Shown here: one piece after another, positions 8,016 to 20,342 of the stretch
How the letters are laid out: each line of letters opens with the position of its first letter
How positions within the stretch are numbered: the first letter of the stretch is position 1
DNA from: Paecilomyces variotii
Taxonomy: Eukaryota
Length of the DNA: 64,000 nt
Direction: 5' to 3' (one strand)
NCBI GenBank assembly: GCA_004022145.1
Contig: RCNU01000006.1
Notes under the pieces: generated by a model
Seen by the model: the letters and a program-made list of their open reading frames with translations, nothing else
Told to the model about the DNA's origin: nothing
Database searches by the model: none
Made by a program: the position numbers and the translations under genes

Positions 8016-9816
8016 ATGAATGAGGAGGGTCTACCCCCCAAAGGCCCGCTTCAGGTGCCTAGGGATGCTGCGCCGCAACTAATGTGGCAGACTGTGGTGG
8101 CAGTACTTATCTTTTCCTGTCTAGCTACGAGACTCATCACTGGTTTTCAAAGTCATCCAAGAGCAGTGACGGATGAAGAGCCTCGGCCTGTTAGGAAGGC
8201 TCCTTATTGGATTCCATGGCTCGGGCATGGGGTGCCGTTTGCGCTGGGGCAGCAGAGCTTCATTGGAAGGGTCAAGTGCGTTTTCTATTATTAATATCAT
8301 GTTTTGGGTATAGATGAAAGCTGACAGATGTTGCAGAGATTGGATATGCGAGCCGGTGTTCAGTCTGCATCTTGCTGGAAAGACGCATAACATGATCATG
8401 GCCCCATCCATAGCCAAATCTGCCCTCGCTCATCGGGCGTTGTCCGCAGACTCGGTCTACGATCGTGTCATGCATAAAGTATTCGGTGACCCTGGGCCCA
8501 TCCGTAAAATGGATGCTCAGCAGACCAAAGCTTTCGATGAAGCTACCAGCCTGTTTATGAGGGAGCCTCATGTGACCGAGACAACTGCTACTATGGTCCG
8601 GCTTTTGGAAACTGAGATTCCAAATCTTGTGTCATTCTCTCACAGTATGGTCGACCAGTCAATCTGGGAGAGGGCGAGTCAGACAACTCTTCTCGAAGAC
8701 AGAGATAAGCCTACCTGTGAGGTGGACCTTTTCAAACTAGTCAGGCATTTCGTCGGATACATTACCAGCACTGTCTTCATGGGAAAAGCGTTCGTTGATT
8801 TTCATCCGGCTTTACTCGAAGATCTCTTCACCTTCGACAAGTACTTCAACTTGCTGCTCATCGGCATCCCACGCTTCGTTCCACTACCAGGTATATCTGC
8901 AGCGTACGCAGCCCGTCACCGCTTGCTTCGCATCATGACTGTCTTCCACGCCTCTTTCGCTTCGTTCGACGAAGGCCGGGATCCAGGATTCGATTTCCGC
9001 GACCTAGACGACGTCTCGGAACCGATGAAGGCGCGCATGCGCTGCTGGAGAAAAGCAGGCTTTGCCCCTGCCGCCAGCGCACCCGGAGACCTGATGATTT
9101 TCTGGGCCATGAACACCAACTCCCCCACCATCGTATTCTGGAACATCATGCACATCCTCGCAGACCCCGAACTCCTAGCAGCCATCAGACGCGAAATCGC
9201 ACCCTACGCCAAAGCCTACCGACCCGGCTTCGAAGACACAGGCCTCCCTTTCACCGAACCGCCTCGCCTTTCCCTCGACTTAAACGGCCTCGTCACCTCC
9301 TGCCCCCTCCTCAAAGCCACCTACTTCGAAACCCTCCGCATGGACACCGCCCCCTTTTCATACCGAGAAGCCAAAACAGGCCTCACCCTCACCGAATCCC
9401 CCGAAGACGCTACCACAGACGGCGTCCCCGAACCGCGCACCTACAGCTTCTACAAAGGCGACTACCTCGCCATCCCTCACGGCGCACAGGCGCGCGATCC
9501 GCGCTCTTTTCCCGAACCAGATAAATTCGACCCCTACCGATTCATCCGCACGGATGCCTCGACAGGGAAGAAAACAGCAGATCTAGACACGGGCCATCTA
9601 CGACCTTTTGGTGGTGGATCGACGATGTGTAAAGGACGCTTCTTTGCAGAGAGACAGGTCCTTGCGTTCGTGGCGAGTATTATCTCCATGTGGGATGTGG
9701 AATTGGTTGAGGGGAGAAGTTTCTGGGAGAATAATAATGTACAGCGACATCCGCATACTAGTGGAGCGTATGTGCCAAGGGGTGGTGTTAAGGCTAGGTT
9801 AAGACAGCGTGTTTAG
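8016..9816 (+). CDS. Cytochrome P450 (CYP7-like/group IV type); intron 8276-8336
   Basis: N-terminal TM, 'PYWIPWLGH', ExxR (ETLR), 'FDPYRF', heme motif 'PFGGGSTMCKGRFFA'. Confidence 0.9.
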
Positions 9817-10503
9817 ATATGCTGCATACGCATATGTATGTGCGTGTGTGTGTATTTTTGGTATACAGCTCGATTCAAAGTTCGCATGTTGTTATTATTA
9901 TTATTCTCTGAGCGGGCGTGTTTTGTATGGAACTTAGGCTATTTCTTCGATATTTCAAAATCTTAGAGAAGGGGTGGGATCCTCTGTTTTATTTGTTTTT
10001 TGATGTTTTTAGAGAAATATGAGATTTTTTGTAGTTATAGTTGAAAGGTATAATACGGGGGTGCTGAAGGTGGTGTCTTATTGATGGACATCACTTTATC
10101 CTAGGCTGTGAGCACGGGTAGTTCTGCGATATGAAGACACAGCAATAGAGATATACTGGTTCCATTTTAAACCTATAATGTAAAAAAGTACAGCTGTCTA
10201 TTCCGGGACTGCAACTGAACCGAGTATTCATCGCGGCTAGCATCCCCTACTAGAGAAAAATTCGAGGACAAAGCACTGCATGAGTGAAGACCAGGAAAAG
10301 CATTCAAGAACGTCGCATGTTCAAGAACCATAATCCTAATTCACGTAAACTTTATTTGGTATTTTGTTGAACTGATCTGCATTCCCTTTTTTCCTTTTTT
10401 TATTCCACGCGCCAGGTGTCGCTTTCGAGGGGGTCATGACAAAAAGAAGAGACATAAAAGTTGAGTTGACGAAATGAATAATGATGATGCTATCGCTGTG
10501 CAT

Positions 10504-11882: not shown

Positions 11883-13347
11883 CTACCATGTCAAAGTCAG
11901 CCAATACTTTTGCCAATTTGCCTCCGTATCAGCTTCGCGGAATTTTTCAATCCCACCCTCGACTCCAGTCTCGTTGACAGTCCAATCGCCGCATTTCACC
12001 CGGTCAGCCCAGTTAGTGAGGACCTTGTGCAGTTGAACCTGTCGTGACCCAAAAAAGCCATTATACCCAGATTGGTACAACTCAGAATTCACATCTAAAG
12101 GGCTCGGTTCGTCATCTATAGGCTCCATTCCCATAACTTCATTATCACTTAGCCGAGCCCAGCCATTGGCCCCGAACATGAATGGAAGCAAAAGTTGACA
12201 GCTATTCTCAAATGCCTGATTCATACGATGATCGCCAATTAGATATAGTCCTGTGGTGATAGGGACATCTGTATAGCCACCATATTTGAGCCAGTTATTT
12301 GGAATAGGGACAGTTTGGTTGGAAACTAGTTCTCCTTTGTCAGCTTGGAAAAGCAGCACCGGCATCTTTCGGCCGAAGGTATCCCTTTGGCCGTTTCGGT
12401 TGAAAGGCTGAGCAATGAATTCGTCCACGGTAGGTATCCTTATACCAGGGGCTATATATCGAAAGGAAAGCTCACGAGTCCATTTTGCGGACTCTTCGCA
12501 AAACTCTCTTGCAAAAGTGTTCTGTTGAATGCCAGCAATATCAAGAATAGCGGGGTCCGTCCAAGGAAGGGAAACCTTTTCATTTCCCCCTCCTTCTTCT
12601 GAGCCAGATCGCTTTAGCCAGCTTGATCTCTTAGCCTCGATCACATCCAAAAGATATTTCAAGGCCTCGACACTCTTTTGAATATCAAAAGTGGTATAAT
12701 CATTGAAAATCCATGGGCCAAAAGCGTCCGATCTGCTTTCTTTACTTTTCTTCCCATCTGGTGTGCAGGCCTCAATCTTCCCCTCCTTGATCATCTCAAG
12801 GTAGGCGCCGTATATTTCCTCCAGTGGTTTCCAGCCATATCCATTATCGCAGATTGGTATTACATCGTCAAACAACTCAACAAAAGCCGCTTTGCAAGTG
12901 TACTGATCGAACCTATAAGGTCATATTAGCAAAAGATAATAACAAGGAATCGGGATATCTATACAGCAAACCCATTTCATCTCCACAGTTAAACCCAGTC
13001 GCATGATGCAGATTGATAAAGCGATCTTTTCCTCTGTCCTCAAACCACGGATCGTCTAACAGATGTTCGCAAGTAGTCAGAGGTTGAAGAAAATAGAAGA
13101 ATGCTGGGGCGTTATCATGATAATATGCACGTTTAAGGAATTCGATCAAATCAGCATTTAAACGACTGGCAATTTGTTCGGATGGAGAAAATCGTTCCCA
13201 CCAGGTCTGTAGAGACCATGACTCAGTGTTTTTGTTAGTACTACTCCATGCTATTTGGAATATCCTGTTATGGAGATTCGCACAAGTCTCGTAATCAAGA
13301 CGTATTGGCTCGACCTTGGGATGTTGCCTTGCCGTGGGGCAAGTCAT
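11883..13347 (-). CDS. Uncharacterised fungal protein (~470 aa); intron 12913-12964
   Basis: Two long ORFs joined in frame by a 52-nt GT..CTAAT..TAG intron; motifs 'LDYETCANLHNRI' and 'VQLHKVLTNWADRV..GDW.V...GVEGGIEKFREAD'. Confidence 0.75.
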
Positions 13348-14804
13348 AGCGAGGATCCGGATAATAGTACCTGAGGGACGCTCGCTATTGTTCACAAAGC
13401 CATTTGGAATGAAGAGAATAAGCAACACGAATGTTCTGAATGCCTAAGCCCGGCAACCTAGAACTCAGCCACCGCATCAAAACGCGATCGCGCTTTTAAA
13501 ACCCCAGATATATACAAAATGTACGGTCCCTGCGCGCCCCCTGGTTTTTTCACCGAGGCCCGGCAGTTTTCTGCCGCGGGGAGTTGGGATCCACCACCCG
13601 ATATTACGATGAAGGACGATGGATTCGCACGCACTGCCATTCAGCTCGGAGCAAAATAAATGAATAAATGAATATGTTGATAATCGCCGAGCGCTAGCGA
13701 GGCGACAAAACAAAACTGAAATAACATTCAGAGGGATAGCCCCGAAAATACAGCCTCTAGAGCAATAACAACAGTGCGAATTATTTTGTTAGAATATACT
13801 GTACTTCTCGAGCTGAGATGGGAATGTGTTATGCGCTCTTTTCCTCGTGTCTGCCTGGCAGAATAGCAATTTCGATAATAACATTGCAGAGTGATACAAC
13901 TGGTTACTCTCCGTTATGCTTAGGTACGATAACGGGACTATGTCGGGACCATATAAGGCGTAAATACTTCAGGGAAAGTTAAATCAACAGGCTCACTTAA
14001 TCAATTCAAATTGACTATAAAAGAAATGAAAAAGAATCTGGACTGCTAGACAGCGTTATTCGGGGGTCGGCGTAGTGCGCATAGGCTTTTAGATTATACA
14101 GATTAGAAACAAGAGCTCAGATCAATTGACTACTTAACATATTCGAGTATTGGTAGATTCTTTTCGAACGAGATTGTTTTGCTGAGTTGCGAGTTGCTAG
14201 CAATGTGAAGTACTAATTCTAGAACCCAACAGTTGAACGCAAAGGCCAAGAACAGAACCACTTGAGTCGACCAAGGGTAAGCACGATTGAGGAACCATTC
14301 CAGTTGATGTGGGATCAAATGTCAAGTTGAGGAAACCTATCCGATGAAATTAGCAATGGGTTCCTCGGAGCCACCCAGCAGAGAAAGGCAAAAGACAAAG
14401 TAAAGTGGAAGAAGAATATTATTATCTGCTGCTTCGCTAGCGAGGAAGATCACTCTGATTTCCAGAATGTTCGAATAGCGTTGTCTGCATCAGGGCCTGC
14501 AGCCAAATGTAGGTAACTTCGTCGAGCAGGAGCTTCGTGATAGCTGCGTAAGCATATCCGATCCCAACGACGGTGAGCATGAAGGAAACAAGCAACAGTC
14601 GGATTCACTCTTTCTCTACAGTACAACCCAGCCATTGCGATGGGAGCAAATCCCAGATTGCATGAAGTCCCCAACGCAGCTGTCAATGTTACCAGGACAT
14701 GTTGATGCTCCAGGGGCCTAGACTTTTGACGCCTCCATAACCACTTCAAAGGCAGGTCGAGCTGAAGTCGCTATATTAGGCCAAAAAAATGGCAAAAGAA
14801 AAAA

Positions 14805-14923
14805 ACATACGACAGCAGGGATTCGCTGGTGGTCACCCACCCAACTACTAACCTGCCGGCGTGTGGCTTAAGTACGGCTGAGCGGACGGGAAGCCCTGTT
14901 TTCCACACCCTATGGTCGTATGT
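14805..14923 (-). rRNA. 5S rRNA (dispersed copy, 119 nt)
   Basis: Reverse complement ACATACGACCATAGGGTGTGGAAAACAGGGCTTCCCGTCCGCTCAGCCGTACTTAAG...TTAGTAGTTGGGTGGGTGACCACCAGCGAATCCCTGCTGTCGTATGT, followed by an oligo-T terminator; CATATA element near -29. Confidence 0.98.
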
Positions 14924-16229
14924 GCTCGATTAGAATGATCAAGAGGTATATGAATCTTGCATAAATGCATACCGAGTGTTTGCTAGTAGTAGTGTAACAC
15001 TGCCATATACCTTGCACCAATACGCAAGACGATTAGTGGAGACTTAATGGCGCTATATACCATAGGTCTACATATTCATCAGAAGCCAGATCAGGAACCG
15101 ATGTGAAGATTTGGTGGACCAAGTCGCGGGTGTCTGCCGACCTGTGCTTGAGCGGGCGCGGCAAGTTTCAGTACTGCTTTGTTTTCTGCGCAGAGTTCGA
15201 ATAATGGCAGTGGCCCAGGTCGGTAAATTTGTCTCGGGTGCTATTATCGACCGTAGATATGATCATGAGGGTTCCTCCTGTCGAAGCTCATGTATTTCTT
15301 TCTGATTGGTTGTTCCGCCCTAGGACGGTGAACAAAGCAAGATCAGGTACACTACCACGGAGTCCCCAGACTATTCTGGTTCGGATCCTAGGTCGTGGAC
15401 GCAGTGCTAGTGGGTTCATGATAATCCTGATGGGATGGACCCGTTAAGCATCCCTGCATGTTATCAAAGGTCCTGAAAGTGATCAACCACGAAGGGGGTG
15501 AGGCTGAAGGATTGCCCCATCGCATTCCTCAAGAAGCTTGCGGGGTTGCTATGAGGCTCTTTCATGGTTTTCCAGCCACATCCACGGATTGCTCAGATAT
15601 TCTTGAACGTCAAGCCAGCACAAAGAATGGAGTAGTCCAATGAGTAGGTAGCTATTTTCTATAGCAGCCATCATCTCCACCAGGACGTTCCTGGCCCACA
15701 ATGGAGAGAGCATCCACCATATCTCATGGTGATCATACGAGGAATCGAATCGATATGATATCTCGACGAGCCATGCTGGCAAGAAAGAAACCAGGAGAAA
15801 GAAGTCTGGTCAGCTGCACAGCACGTGATCCCACGGGAAGTGGCCCTAGGGGTGATGCGATTGGCCAGTGCAGACGGTTCCGTTTTGGGCGGCGGAGGGG
15901 CTCGTTCTTTGATGCGGAAATGATGGCGCGTCTTTCCGACAATAATAAAGAGTTTTCTGGATGATTATTATTATTATAATTTAGTATTACCAGATTAATA
16001 CCATATTCCGGAGGGCAGTACCAACAGTGGATATTCCATGAGCTGTCTCCATAACAACGATGGTAGTCAACAGTATTAGGTACTCTCCATGCTCCGCTGC
16101 CCCTAGATAATATTTCAATAAATACAACTGTAATAATAGTATCTAAAATAGATTATGGTACACATAAATTCTGTAATTAATTAATTATTATTGTTATTAT
16201 TATTAGCATCAGTTCAGTAAATACTGTCT

Positions 16230-16595
16230 GGAAGATTCCCCAGACCAAGTCATGATGAGCTCAGAGAACATCGACCCCTCCAGCGGGATTACGTCATGCG
16301 AGCACCCCGCCAGATCGCCGTGTCATCGATGCGATCTTCAATCTGCCATATTCATTCTAGAAGTCACTGGCGGTCTTCCTCTACCATATCTACCCAGTAA
16401 TTAATGGCCATTGCGGCCAGTGAAGGTGCCAGAACGCCTGGATGCTTCCTCAGCGGCACCGCTGGCACTTGCTAGCAGTTGCTGGGGCATCCCAGCCTTC
16501 GGTGGAGGGCTCGTGGCCCCCGTAGAATCGCATGGATTCCCATCGAAGCTCACCCGATGCTAGAAACTTCTGCCTCACCGCCCACCACTATATTA
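16230..16595 (+). promoter_or_regulatory. HSP70 promoter with heat-shock-element-like nGAAn pairs and a TATA-like box
   Basis: GGAAGATTCC 16230-16239, ATTCTAGAAG 16354-16363, AGAAACTTCT 16562-16571, TATATTA near 16589. Confidence 0.5.
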
Positions 16596-16804
16596 GTGAT
16601 TTCCTCGCACAACCGTAGCCTCAAGTTTCTTCCCTCAATCACATTCTCATCAAAAGACACTGAATCACGAATATCTCTGTCTTCTCTCTCCTGATAGACT
16701 CTTTTCTTTCCTAGGCTCGACCGTCCCTCGAGTCCTTAATATTGTACATTAGTCTTCCCTTTTCCACGAATTATTGACGAGTCTCTTACGAATCACCACA
16801 CACA

Positions 16805-18575
16805 ATGGCTCCCGCTGTTGGTATTGACTTGGGTACCACGTACTCCTGCGTGGGTGTCTACCGTGATGACCGTATCGAGATCATCGCCAACGACCAGGGT
16901 AACCGCACGACCCCATCGTTCGTGGCCTTCACCGACACCGAGCGTCTGATCGGTGATGCCGCTAAGAACCAGGTCGCCATGAACCCATCCAACACCGTCT
17001 TCGACGCCAAGCGTCTGATTGGACGTAAGTTCAGCGACCCTGAGGTCCAGGCCGATATGAAGCACTTCCCCTTCAAGGTCGTCGACAAGAACGGCAAGCC
17101 CGTCGTCGAGGTCGAGTTCAAGGGCGAGACCAAGCAGTTCACCCCCGAGGAGATCTCCTCCATGGTCCTGACCAAGATGCGTGAGACCGCTGAGTCTTAC
17201 CTCGGTGGTACCGTCAACAACGCTGTCGTCACCGTCCCTGCCTACTTCAACGACTCCCAGCGTCAGGCCACCAAGGACGCCGGTCTCATTGCCGGTCTGA
17301 ACGTCCTCCGTATCATCAACGAGCCCACGGCCGCCGCCATTGCCTACGGTCTCGACAAGAAGGCCGAGGGCGAGCGTAACGTCCTGATCTTCGACCTGGG
17401 TGGTGGTACTTTCGATGTTTCCCTCCTGACCATCGAGGAGGGTATCTTCGAGGTCAAGTCCACCGCTGGTGACACTCACCTGGGTGGTGAGGACTTCGAC
17501 AACCGTCTGGTTAACCACTTCGTTAACGAATTCAAACGCAAGTTCAAAAAAGTGAGTGCTTTCGCTGACTCTAATTTGCCATTGTGTTATACACTCCTGG
17601 CGCCCCCCTCCCCACCAACCCCCCAACCTCCATCTTGTTCCTGGTTTCTGTCTCTATCCCCAGGGATGGTTCGAGAGTGTACACCCTGATACTCTGTCTG
17701 ACCATTCCCAATGGGTATACATTGTGCCCAGGTACCACTGTCCTTTGCTATGTGACCTGGTTGCCTGGTTACATTTTGCTACTGTGGTATCGCTCTGCTG
17801 TCATTGTGCTATATTGTGGAAGCTGCTATACTACTACAGCTATAGCATTGCTAGTGTCTGGTTCCCTTCTAGCTCAAAAAGACAGCCAGCAGTGCAAGCT
17901 GCTTCAGTTCTAAGGTGCCTCCTTTCAGTGCATCTTTTGGGGCCTATGTATCGCCAGGACAGGTTGTATGGGCATAGCCACACTAGAAATAGTGTGACTT
18001 ATGGCCATCTTCGTCGGGCAACAATCTCTTGATGTGGATTTTTCTTCACTGTTTTCCCCCTTTTTTCAATCCGGTGCCCTCCCAATGATCACTTCTCCTT
18101 GCCCATCATGTCCCCTTAAACCCATATCACGTGATATCATTTCCATTTCCCTATCAACGTTCACACAGGAGCAAAAGTCACCTTAGGATCCTTAGGAGGA
18201 CTCTGCTATCATTGTTCAAACAATGGCAAAAGTCACCTTGGGATCTTTAGGGGGACTCCGCTATCATTGTTCACACAACGGCAAAAGTCACCTTAGGATT
18301 TGTAGGAGGACTCCGTGCTAACTTGAATAAACAGGACTTGACTACCAATGCTCGTGCGCTCCGTCGTCTGCGCACTGCTTGCGAGCGTGCCAAGCGTACC
18401 CTCTCTTCCTCTGCTCAGACCTCCATCGAGATCGACTCTCTCTATGAGGGTATTGACTTCTACACCTCCATCACCCGTGCCCGTTTCGAGGAGCTCTGCC
18501 AGGACCTCTTCCGCTCCACCATGGACCCCGTCGAGCGTGTCCTCCGTGACGCCAAGGTTGACAAGTCCTCCGTCC

Positions 18576-18627
<52 letters not shown>

Positions 18628-19501
18628 GGTCAGCGACTTCTTCAACAAGGAGCCCAACAAGTCCATCAACCCCGATGAGGCTGTCGCCTACGGTGCTGCC
18701 GTCCAGGCCGCCATCCTGTCTGGTGACACTTCCTCCAAGTCCACCAACGAGATCCTGCTGCTCGATGTCGCTCCTCTGTCCGTCGGTATCGAGACCGCTG
18801 GTGGTGTCATGACTCCTCTGATCAAGCGCAACACCACTATCCCCACCAAGAAGTCCGAGACCTTCTCCACCTACTCCGACAACCAGCCCGGTGTCCTGAT
18901 CCAGGTGTACGAGGGTGAGCGTGCTCGCACCAAGGACAACAACCTGCTCGGTAAGTTCGAGCTGACCGGCATTCCTCCGGCTCCTCGTGGTGTTCCTCAG
19001 ATTGAGGTTACCTTCGATGTCGACGCCAACGGTATCATGAACGTCTCTGCCGTCGAGAAGGGCACTGGTAAGAGCAACAAGATCACCATCACCAACGACA
19101 AGGGTCGTCTCTCCAAGGAGGACATTGAGCGCATGCTCGCCGAGGCTGAGAAGTACAAGGCTGAGGACGAGGCCGAGGCTGGCCGTATCCAGGCCAAGAA
19201 CGGTCTGGAGTCCTACGCCTACTCCCTCAAGAACACCCTCAACGAGGGTCAGCTCAACATCTCCGCCGGCGACAAGGAGAAGCTCCAGGCCGAGATTGAG
19301 AAGACCATCTCTTGGCTCGACAGCAACCAGACTGCCACCAAGGAGGAGTACGAGTCCACCCAGAAGGAGCTCGAGAGCGTTGCCAACCCCATCATCTCCG
19401 GTGCCTACGCTGGTGCTGCTGGTGGTGCTGCTCCTGGCGCCGCTGGTGCTTCTTCCACTAAGACTGCCGACGAGGTCGAGCAGCCTGAGGAGCTTGACTA
19501 A
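16805..19501 (+). CDS. hsp70: Cytosolic Hsp70 (Ssa-type); single intron 17552-18334
   Basis: '[11 protein letters not shown]', '[12 protein letters not shown]', '[13 protein letters not shown]'; exons join in frame [16 protein letters not shown]-terminus PEELD; strong high-expression codon bias. Confidence 0.99.
17566..18025 (+). ncRNA. Candidate structured cis-regulatory RNA inside the HSP70 intron
   Basis: Series of adjacent stem-loops with many G-U pairs, a GAAA-capped stem, and long-range helices (see findings). Confidence 0.55.
18151..18315 (+). repeat. Three tandem 55-bp repeats immediately upstream of the HSP70 intron branch point
   Basis: GCAAAAGTCACCTT recurs at 18171, 18226 and 18281 (period 55); units 18151-18205, 18206-18260, 18261-18315. 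Confidence 0.97.
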
Positions 19502-20342
19502 ACGGGTGCACGTGATGTTTCCGGAAACGGCTAGTTCTCGGATCTTCTTGATTCCCTCTTCTTAGTTCATTTTTCCTTTGTTTCGACATCTCGTTTGCTT
19601 GTTGGTCCTGGGTCGACAAGCGGATGCTGGCGCTAATGTCTTTTGCTTTTCTCATGATATGATGGCTTTGATTCCTTTTTAATTCCTGTTTTACGATTGC
19701 ATAGATTCATGTTTGCTTCGGGCATTTCATGATAGCAACACACTTAGGGAGGGAAAAGTTCCAGTGTGATCAATAAAGAAAGTTCATAATTATCTACTTC
19801 TTTTCTAACGAGGCCGTAGAACCGTAGGTAATTTTCCTAAGTATTGGTAACAAGAGTTGTCCTAATAGTAACTACCGCGTGATAGAGTAGACTAGGATTA
19901 TCAATCGATTCTCCAAGGAGTGCTTCACGTTACTAGCAACTCGCAACAGTTAGCAGTACTATGCCAGCCCCCGAACGTTGTTTCAGTTTATTTGCATGTG
20001 ACATCTTCTTTCTGCAGCCCTTTTCTTTCATTTTCATTGTATTTGTATCCCTTCCATTCGAAAACATGGAGTCTGTTGAGATTATCCATTATCTGAGAGG
20101 ATTTATGCATAAATCATCGCATAGGCGTATGTCGTATCATAACAGAAAAGTCCGCAGTTTATACATATGTTATTTGTATCGAACTTTATACGGAGTACTT
20201 ACAGTACAGTATGAGAAGGAAAGAATAAAAATTCCCAAAGAAATCTCCGCTCAATCAGAACTCCCTCCCTGACGAAATGTGAAAAAATGACCCTAAAAAG
20301 TTATACTTCCGTTGTATCCATGTCAATATCCACTTCGCGTAT

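Follow-up and report, generated by a model that had tools for sequence, protein, structure and literature searches.

The window analysed here is a 64,000-nt stretch of contig RCNU01000006.1 (assembly GCA_004022145.1) of Paecilomyces variotii, and the subject of this report is the 783-nt intron of a cytosolic Hsp70 gene on its plus strand, the two ends of which are predicted to pair in a long stem. Joined, the two exons encode a protein identical to P0004, a public sequence of 637 aa present on 12 contigs, and the names on P0004 and on the other public proteins with an identical tail are those of Paecilomyces variotii. The intron has the donor, branch motif and acceptor of a U2-type GT-AG intron and a junction that restores the reading frame, and two related contigs of mRNA-like appearance, L001 and L002, are colinear over the exon junction. 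An earlier inspection of the letters of the window, hereafter the sequence-only reading, had given the intron (17552-18334) the same length, and had proposed that a densely folded domain within it, at 17587-18025, represents a cis-regulatory RNA not yet described or a non-coding RNA (ncRNA) hosted by the intron. The features of the gene and its intron are the following:

16805-17551, plus strand: Hsp70 exon 1, 249 aa, C-terminal end NEFKRKFKK, equal to the N-terminal part of P0004
17552-18334, plus strand: spliceosomal intron in phase 0, 783 nt, junction KFKK/DLTT as in P0004
17552-17557, plus strand: 5' splice site GTGAGT
17566-17602, plus strand: 5' arm of the predicted closing (zipper) stem, 25 pairs with 18259-18290, probability 0.66-1.0
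17603-17662, plus strand: pyrimidine-rich, C-rich tract, predicted mostly unpaired
17663-17709, plus strand: hairpin S1, 16 bp with 3 G-U, -19.5 kcal/mol, paired with probability 0.78 when the entire intron is folded at 37 °C
17712-17730, plus strand: hairpin S2, 8 bp with 2 G-U, -8.2 kcal/mol
17731-17791, plus strand: hairpin S3, bulged, 61 nt, 22 bp with 2 G-U, -21.8 kcal/mol
17807-17996, plus strand: stems S4-S8, present, in surrounding windows that fold at shuffle level
18040-18130, plus strand: second pyrimidine-rich tract, z about 0
18151-18315, plus strand: tandem repeat, 3 x 55 nt, copies 82-84% identical to the first
18259-18290, plus strand: 3' arm of the predicted closing stem, inside repeat copy 3
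18318-18322, plus strand: branch-point motif CTAAC
18332-18334, plus strand: 3' splice site CAG
18335-19498, with the stop codon to 19501, plus strand: Hsp70 exon 2, 388 aa

The strongest feature of the intron is the closing stem, which the sequence-only reading overlooked together with the repeat of three 55-nt units. The probabilities listed above are those of each of the 25 pairs in the partition function of the whole intron, the predicted fold of which has an energy of -232.8 kcal/mol (z -3.33, matched by none of 100 shuffles; in another run z -2.43, matched by 1 of 20). At the core of the stem lies the inverted repeat TGACT[4 nt]TTTGCCATTGT, 16 nt with a 4-nt bulge and perfect against copy 2 of the tandem repeat, and of 2000 shuffles one attained its score of 12. 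Shuffles form 6.8 terminal long-range pairs on average, against 25 here, a number that 6 of 100 shuffles reached. The first 14 nt of the intron precede the stem, and its end lies 28 nt short of the branch motif; approximately 690 nt would be looped out, and the 14 + 44 = 58 nt that remain outside equal a fungal intron of normal size. Once the stem has formed, donor and branch motif would be separated by approximately 35 nt (linkers of 8 and 27 nt); as counted from the fold, the linkers would total approximately 49 nt if the outer 5-bp helix opened.

Each 55-nt copy of the tandem repeat holds a segment complementary to 17566-17585, and the repeat itself points to growth of the intron by local duplication. 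Windows of 150 nt over this region fold with z -3.5 and -3.1 on the two strands. By eye, the start of each unit (GCTATCATTGTTCA.ACAA.GG) resembles the real 3' end of the intron (GCTAACTTGAATAAACAGG) in 18206-18334. The branch and acceptor region may itself have been duplicated in tandem, CTAAC and AG being absent today from the upstream copies.

Homologous loci inform on the age of the site and on the usual length of the intron in it. A scan of metagenome contigs with exon 2 yielded 80 loci, in which introns at the site were sought by local tblastn. An intron was found at the site or within a few codons of it in 8 of the 80, the other 72 being colinear over the site and many of them consisting of transcript-like contigs of approximately 2 kb. 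The same phase-0 site after KK is occupied in L010 (58 nt), L018 (54 nt) and L022 (58 nt), while the introns lying a few codons off are those of L008 (50 nt), L019 (54 nt) and L025 (61 nt), as well as L017 (177 nt) and L024 (178 nt). These sequences show the intron site to be old and its usual occupant to be approximately 55 nt long. A second scan, of prokaryote genome contigs, returned 80 loci made up of bacterial DnaK or short eukaryote-like contaminants (best 82%, partial match). Every readable metagenome homologue (L001-L025) ends in GPTVEEVD and none of the 160 loci is of the EELD type, and the fetched loci are therefore homologues of other lineages or paralogues rather than Eurotiales orthologues; those of EEVD type speak for the age of the site and the usual intron length, and not for conservation among close relatives. 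The folded domain is absent from all eight introns at or near the site, all of them in distant, EEVD-type homologues, and the 783-nt intron has no similarity in the 160 loci or in the rest of the window, where the best hits were exact matches of 14 nt with an E-value of 0.15 or worse. The Hsp70 of the window ends in ...PEELD (19460-19498) and has no GGMP repeats, as do its counterparts in Thermoascus and Aspergillus fumigatus; set against EEVD elsewhere, the EELD tail is the mark of a Eurotiales group and not an oddity of one gene.

One of the fetched loci may represent a parallel case, in which a short intron has been joined by one strong hairpin. The 178-nt intron of L024 (3822-3999), two bases off the site, combines a short intron with a near-perfect hairpin of approximately 100 nt (z -3.9 and -4.35), the strength of which on both strands marks it as a palindrome at the DNA level.

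Long fungal introns of related architecture have been described. In yeast, zipper stems, defined as stems of at least 6 bp between donor and branch point with linkers of 42-85 nt in total, are widespread, supported by dimethyl sulphate (DMS) probing and poorly conserved between species (PMC12350175, excerpts). The Hsp70 stem, whose 25 predicted pairs lie well above the 6-bp minimum, resembles the zipper stems of Saccharomyces cerevisiae (RPS17B) in extending from behind the donor to ahead of the branch point, in looping out the bulk of the intron and in the lineage-specific nature of its sequence. It differs from them in its 25 bp, in the approximately 690 nt looped out, in being known from prediction, and in the position of its 3' arm, which falls in a tandem repeat any of whose three copies could serve as partner (PMC12350175, excerpts). 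In Aspergillus, introns peak near 65 nt and predicted structure rises with length, and a bulged hairpin of approximately 60 nt marks introns averaging 183 nt, its proposed role being to shorten the effective length (PMC2467506, excerpts). Hairpin S3, bulged, of 61 nt and 22 bp, is similar, occurring in the same order of fungi and in an intron far above 65 nt, and the same role, a shortened effective intron, is proposed here for the Hsp70 structure. The Aspergillus motif, however, derives from conserved alignments of six genomes, whereas the present case concerns one 783-nt intron with several hairpins (PMC2467506, excerpts).

We read the Hsp70 intron as a lineage-specific, structurally compacted long U2-type intron of Eurotiales cytosolic Hsp70, occupying an old site and belonging to a kind known from yeast and Aspergillus, and assign to this reading a probability of roughly 0.5. 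An ancestral intron of approximately 55 nt would have expanded to 783 nt in this lineage via local duplication, insertion or both. The interrupted 25-bp stem formed by 17566-17602 and 18259-18290 would, if it forms in vivo, extrude approximately 690 nt as a closed domain comprising three solid hairpins (17663-17791) and several chance-level ones, and the role of the structure would probably be passive, allowing a splicing machinery adapted to introns of approximately 60 nt to recognise one that is some ten times longer. Compaction is suggested by the homologous introns of 50-61 nt at or near the site, considered together with the 58 nt left outside the stem of the 783-nt intron. It is unlikely that the intron encodes a separate RNA, a ligand switch or a temperature switch. 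If the reading is correct, this would be a clear natural case, from outside budding yeast, of an end-to-end stem holding together a fungal intron of great length, its host being a stress gene among those most strongly expressed in a heat-resistant mould of food spoilage and fermentation.

Several observations weigh against compaction by the closing stem. The stem was tested only after having been noticed in the fold. The graph distance from donor to branch motif, 17 steps in the minimum free energy (MFE) structure, is not shortened relative to shuffles, 51 of 100 being as short or shorter, and this measure was rejected as a test of compaction because it does not discriminate from shuffles. RNAduplex hybridisation of the 5' end with the repeat region gave a weak result, dominated by the C-rich tract, with a z of only -2.5 (matched by 8 of 500 shuffles); against other stretches of the intron, the energy of this 5' segment went as low as -37.0 kcal/mol, compared with -37.9 kcal/mol against the repeat region. 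The MFE structure pairs the donor site and the branch motif in part, their unpaired probabilities being 0.22 and 0.50 at 37 °C. The linkers of 8 + 27 = 35 nt fall slightly below the yeast range of 42-85 nt (PMC12350175, excerpts), and the 177-nt intron of L017 displays no excess structure (z +0.7). As for RNA, the occurrence of 83-92% of the sampled 31-mers of the intron in contigs of six metatranscriptome runs from two studies speaks for the reading and indicates that intron-containing RNA, or DNA carry-over, is common enough to assemble; against it, such contigs could represent pre-mRNA, introns that were retained or excised, or DNA carry-over. The corresponding shares in two further studies, 24-28%, carry no weight.

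The hairpins enclosed by the stem were compared with shuffled sequences. All eight stems that the sequence-only reading had listed fold where it placed them, with 103 pairs in total, 88 Watson-Crick and 15 G-U. The best single element is S3, whose energy was equalled by 0 of 300 shuffles and whose outer helix has a probability of 0.99. For the 439-nt segment 17587-18025, a comparison with dinucleotide shuffles had been suggested as a check on the earlier claim, and the segment indeed folds better than these on the plus strand (MFE -146.9 kcal/mol, z -4.02, 0 of 100 shuffles as good), the minus strand having a z of -1.35, which 8 of 100 shuffles matched. Because the boundaries of this segment had been chosen by eye, controls were run with 150-nt windows and with a fixed grid of 439-nt windows. 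Among the 150-nt windows of the plus strand, the folded domain contains just two outliers, 17652-17801 (z -3.2) and 17702-17851 (z -2.3), and those over 17752-18001, where five of the eight stems lie, range from z -0.9 to +0.5. On the grid (73 positions on both strands, 146 values, mean z 0.09, sd 1.24), the window over the folded domain (17561, plus strand) has a z of -2.95 and ranks third of 146. The non-coding windows ranking above it start at 9659 on the plus strand (z -3.93) and at 13171 on the minus strand (z -3.45; 13171-13609), with z-values obtained from 20 shuffles each. The first of them, 9659-10097, is G+T-rich, with a (TG)n run and ATT repeats. A difference in z between strands of at least 2.6 was recorded at 4 of the 73 grid positions. 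Exact inverted words of 6 to 8 nt are not enriched over shuffles in 17587-18025 (z 0.1 to 0.7), and neither are direct words; the folding excess thus comes from imperfect helices containing G-U pairs rather than from DNA palindromes.

The folding signal is modest, though genuine, and is carried chiefly by hairpins S1-S3 (17663-17791). What survives of the description as a densely folded domain is the excess on the sense strand (z -4.02), whereas local excess is restricted to 17652-17851 and five of the stems fold at shuffle level. The accompanying statement, that the imperfections are mostly G-U as expected of structure at the RNA level, agrees with a sense-strand excess that arises in part via G-U pairs (15 of 103). 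The last 150 nt of exon 1 (17402-17551) also fold strongly, with z -3.4 and -3.2 on the two strands, in keeping with the enrichment of hairpins just inside exon ends reported for Aspergillus (PMC2467506, excerpts).

Such a profile also bears on the view that the structure has no function, the approximately 700 extra nt being neutral clutter from local duplications or an insertion that a highly expressed gene tolerates, with the hairpins and the inverted repeat as by-products. We hold this to be somewhat unlikely. Two other non-coding strand-windows of the 146, at z -3.9 and -3.45, illustrate that folding of this degree occurs without any claimed function, five of the eight stems lie in chance-level windows, the tandem repeat is a sign of recent duplication, and random sequences of like length also bring their ends together. 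Neutral clutter is nevertheless harder to reconcile with the lack of enrichment of exact inverted or direct words, which deprives recent DNA palindromes of explanatory value, with the better folding of the sense than of the antisense strand, a gap this large being seen at 4 of 73 positions, and with the rarity of the terminal inverted repeat (1 of 2000 shuffles).

Public annotations disagree exactly at this intron. The proteins with an identical tail have six lengths (614, 623, 627, 637, 647 and 648 aa) and differ only at this junction; the 637-aa model coincides with the splice model of this analysis, fits the sequence and is the correct gene model. The 623- and 627-aa models make use of in-frame GT sites within exon 1, and the 614-aa P0008, with the junction DTHLG/DLTT, has lost 23 further residues of exon 1. 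The 648-aa P0006 (three contigs) is matched exactly if the donor reads GC and splicing runs from the next GT (17556) to the AG at 18304-18305, which adds 4 + 29 nt, or 11 codons. In the 647-aa P0005 (one contig), the extra peptide ASAFPPLFNL corresponds to 17552-17563, with Val changed to Ala, joined in frame to 18056-18073 and followed by GT. The latter segment reads PPFFNP in the window, as against the PPLFNL part of the P0005 peptide, and a peptide match of this type in any frame was obtained in 28 of 1000 shuffles.

Both P0005 and P0006 need Ala (GCN) instead of Val after KK, which would imply a GT-to-GC donor variant in some strains. P0005 further hints at a conspecific strain without 17564-18055, an in-frame segment of 492 nt that has TTTC at each of its break points and contains the entire folded domain as well as the closing stem's 5' arm. 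The evidence for both strain variants consists of predicted proteins. If the absence of the segment were true, the folded domain would be dispensable within the species; a strain of this kind would explain P0005 and would speak for the view that the structure is functionless, but the argument depends on a predicted protein. If the strains truly differ, in the donor and in the 492-nt indel, they would constitute a natural experiment on the role of intron structure in splicing under heat.

The intron was also searched for known RNA families and coding capacity. At E ≤ 10, Rfam models gave two weak matches over 16000-20000, which lie beyond the 3' end of the gene, and no match in the intron. A scan for box C/D motifs found no candidates on the plus strand and six on the minus strand, none of whose terminal stems exceeds 1 bp; H/ACA motifs were judged via Rfam and by eye. 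The earlier remark that the intron bears no C/D, H/ACA, U14, RNase P/MRP, SRP or TPP signature is borne out by the empty Rfam result at this threshold and the negative C/D scan. An identity as small nucleolar RNA (snoRNA) was rejected, there being no Rfam match and no C/D candidate with a terminal stem, and so were a group I or group II intron, a riboswitch or another Rfam family, for which the intron gave no covariance-model match. Intron-hosted snoRNAs are known from the same gene family, U14 residing in vertebrate hsc70 introns. The likeness lies in a structured RNA within an Hsp70-family intron, and the difference in the lack of a C/D or H/ACA signature and of an Rfam match here. The plus strand of the intron contains open frames of 158 codons (17556-18032) and of 112 codons, which are attributable to the A-poor composition of the sense strand (A 0.20); coding potential was discarded for both, with 0 Pfam families at E ≤ 1. 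In a transcript retaining the intron, the frame of exon 1 would continue for 46 codons and stop at 17687-17689.

According to the sequence-only reading, the domain is a functional RNA; it could act as a cis-regulator of Hsp70 splicing, for instance through heat-controlled retention, or be a stable ncRNA derived from the intron. This is improbable in our assessment, even though folding specific to the sense strand, with G-U pairs, and the abundance of intron words in RNA contigs would suit it. A promoter with heat-shock elements would suit it as well:

16231, 16355 and 16563 (16231-16575), plus strand: three heat-shock-element-like dimers (TTCnnGAA / GAAnnTTC), upstream of the ATG

The consensus of the heat-shock element is TTCnnGAA / GAAnnTTC, and the three dimers in the 804 nt upstream compare with 0.67 expected from the density in the window (53 in 64 kb). 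In related fungi, unspliced hsp70 transcripts of Paracoccidioides build up transiently on a temperature shift (PMC3237447, excerpts), and introns of Hsp70-family genes are retained in Trichophyton rubrum (PMC6830096), reports which together suggest that the splicing of Hsp70 introns in this fungal class can vary with stress. The resemblance to the present gene consists in an intron-containing Hsp70 of a Eurotiomycete with possibly stress-variable splicing; no structured intron domain is involved in either report (PMC3237447, excerpts; PMC6830096). The putative GC donor of P0005 and P0006 would in addition be a weaker donor, of a kind often tied to regulated splicing.

A functional RNA is, on the other hand, at odds with the lack of an Rfam match and of a C/D candidate, with the absence of the domain from the eight homologous introns at or near the site (8/8), with the lack of similar sequence in the rest of the window or the 160 loci, and with the possible absence of the domain in a conspecific strain. 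The predicted probability of the closing stem is 0.92 at 37 °C and 0.78 at 62 °C, staying at or above 0.78 over 25 to 62 °C, and a splicing switch of the RNA thermometer type was rejected, as the thermodynamic model gave no melting of the stem over this range. Among the papers listed by the literature searches, none concerns a structured Hsp70 intron in Paecilomyces or other Eurotiales, and the main text of two fungal screens for conserved RNA structure contains no mention of hsp70 or heat shock in the excerpts covered (PMC8216456, PMC2467506). The claim of an undescribed cis-regulatory RNA or intron-hosted ncRNA is therefore not sustained, in view of the missing snoRNA signature, the lack of similarity in 160 loci and the eight homologous introns without the domain, to which may be added that excess structure is limited to approximately 200 nt plus the closing stem and that the domain may be missing in a conspecific strain. 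Long fungal introns packed with hairpins and having closing stems are, moreover, already in print (PMC2467506, PMC12350175, excerpts of both).

A variant of the regulatory idea takes the closing stem and the repeat into account: the closed hairpin domain and its three-copy partner repeat would form a lineage-specific regulator of Hsp70 output in a heat-resistant mould. Splicing would be set by the choice among the three repeat partners, or by competition with helices over the donor and branch motif, and the balance would lie between spliced pre-mRNA and retained or stable intron RNA. Natural variants suggested by the public gene models, with a GT or GC donor and with the 492-nt domain present or absent, would tune this balance. 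We regard such a regulator as a long shot.

The third alternative concerns a mobile or once-mobile element, be it introner-like, a symmetrical proliferating intron, or a miniature inverted-repeat transposable element (MITE) or foldback element inserted in an ancestral intron of approximately 58 nt, which is the sum of the 14 + 44 nt outside the inverted repeat. Introner-like elements and the symmetrical (stw)introns of Hypoxylaceae share with the Hsp70 intron a length above that of regular introns, a stable fold, near-terminal inverted repeats and the lack of target duplications (PMC3609843, PMC8469720, excerpts of both). They are, in contrast, multi-copy and located at newly gained positions, whereas the Hsp70 intron is single in the searched DNA and lies at an old site (same excerpts). 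The remaining 63 kb of the window and the 160 loci yielded no second copy of the intron, and no target-site duplication flanks 17566 and 18290 by inspection. Insertion of a MITE or DNA transposon was accordingly rejected, as an inverted repeat is present but no direct duplication surrounds it. An introner-like gained position was likewise rejected, since the phase-0 site after KK is shared by L010, L018 and L022, from which it follows that the intron is not a new gain. With no coding capacity and 0 Pfam families in addition, a mobile origin appears very doubtful to us. As statements about origin, the functionless and mobile-element explanations overlap with the compacted-intron reading that we favour.

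In the neighbourhood of the gene, a search of the whole window with Rfam at gathering thresholds returned solely a 5S rRNA, at 14804-14923. This solitary 5S rRNA gene lies on the minus strand, approximately 1.9 kb upstream of the Hsp70 start codon, and was detected with 85.5 bits (E 8e-17).

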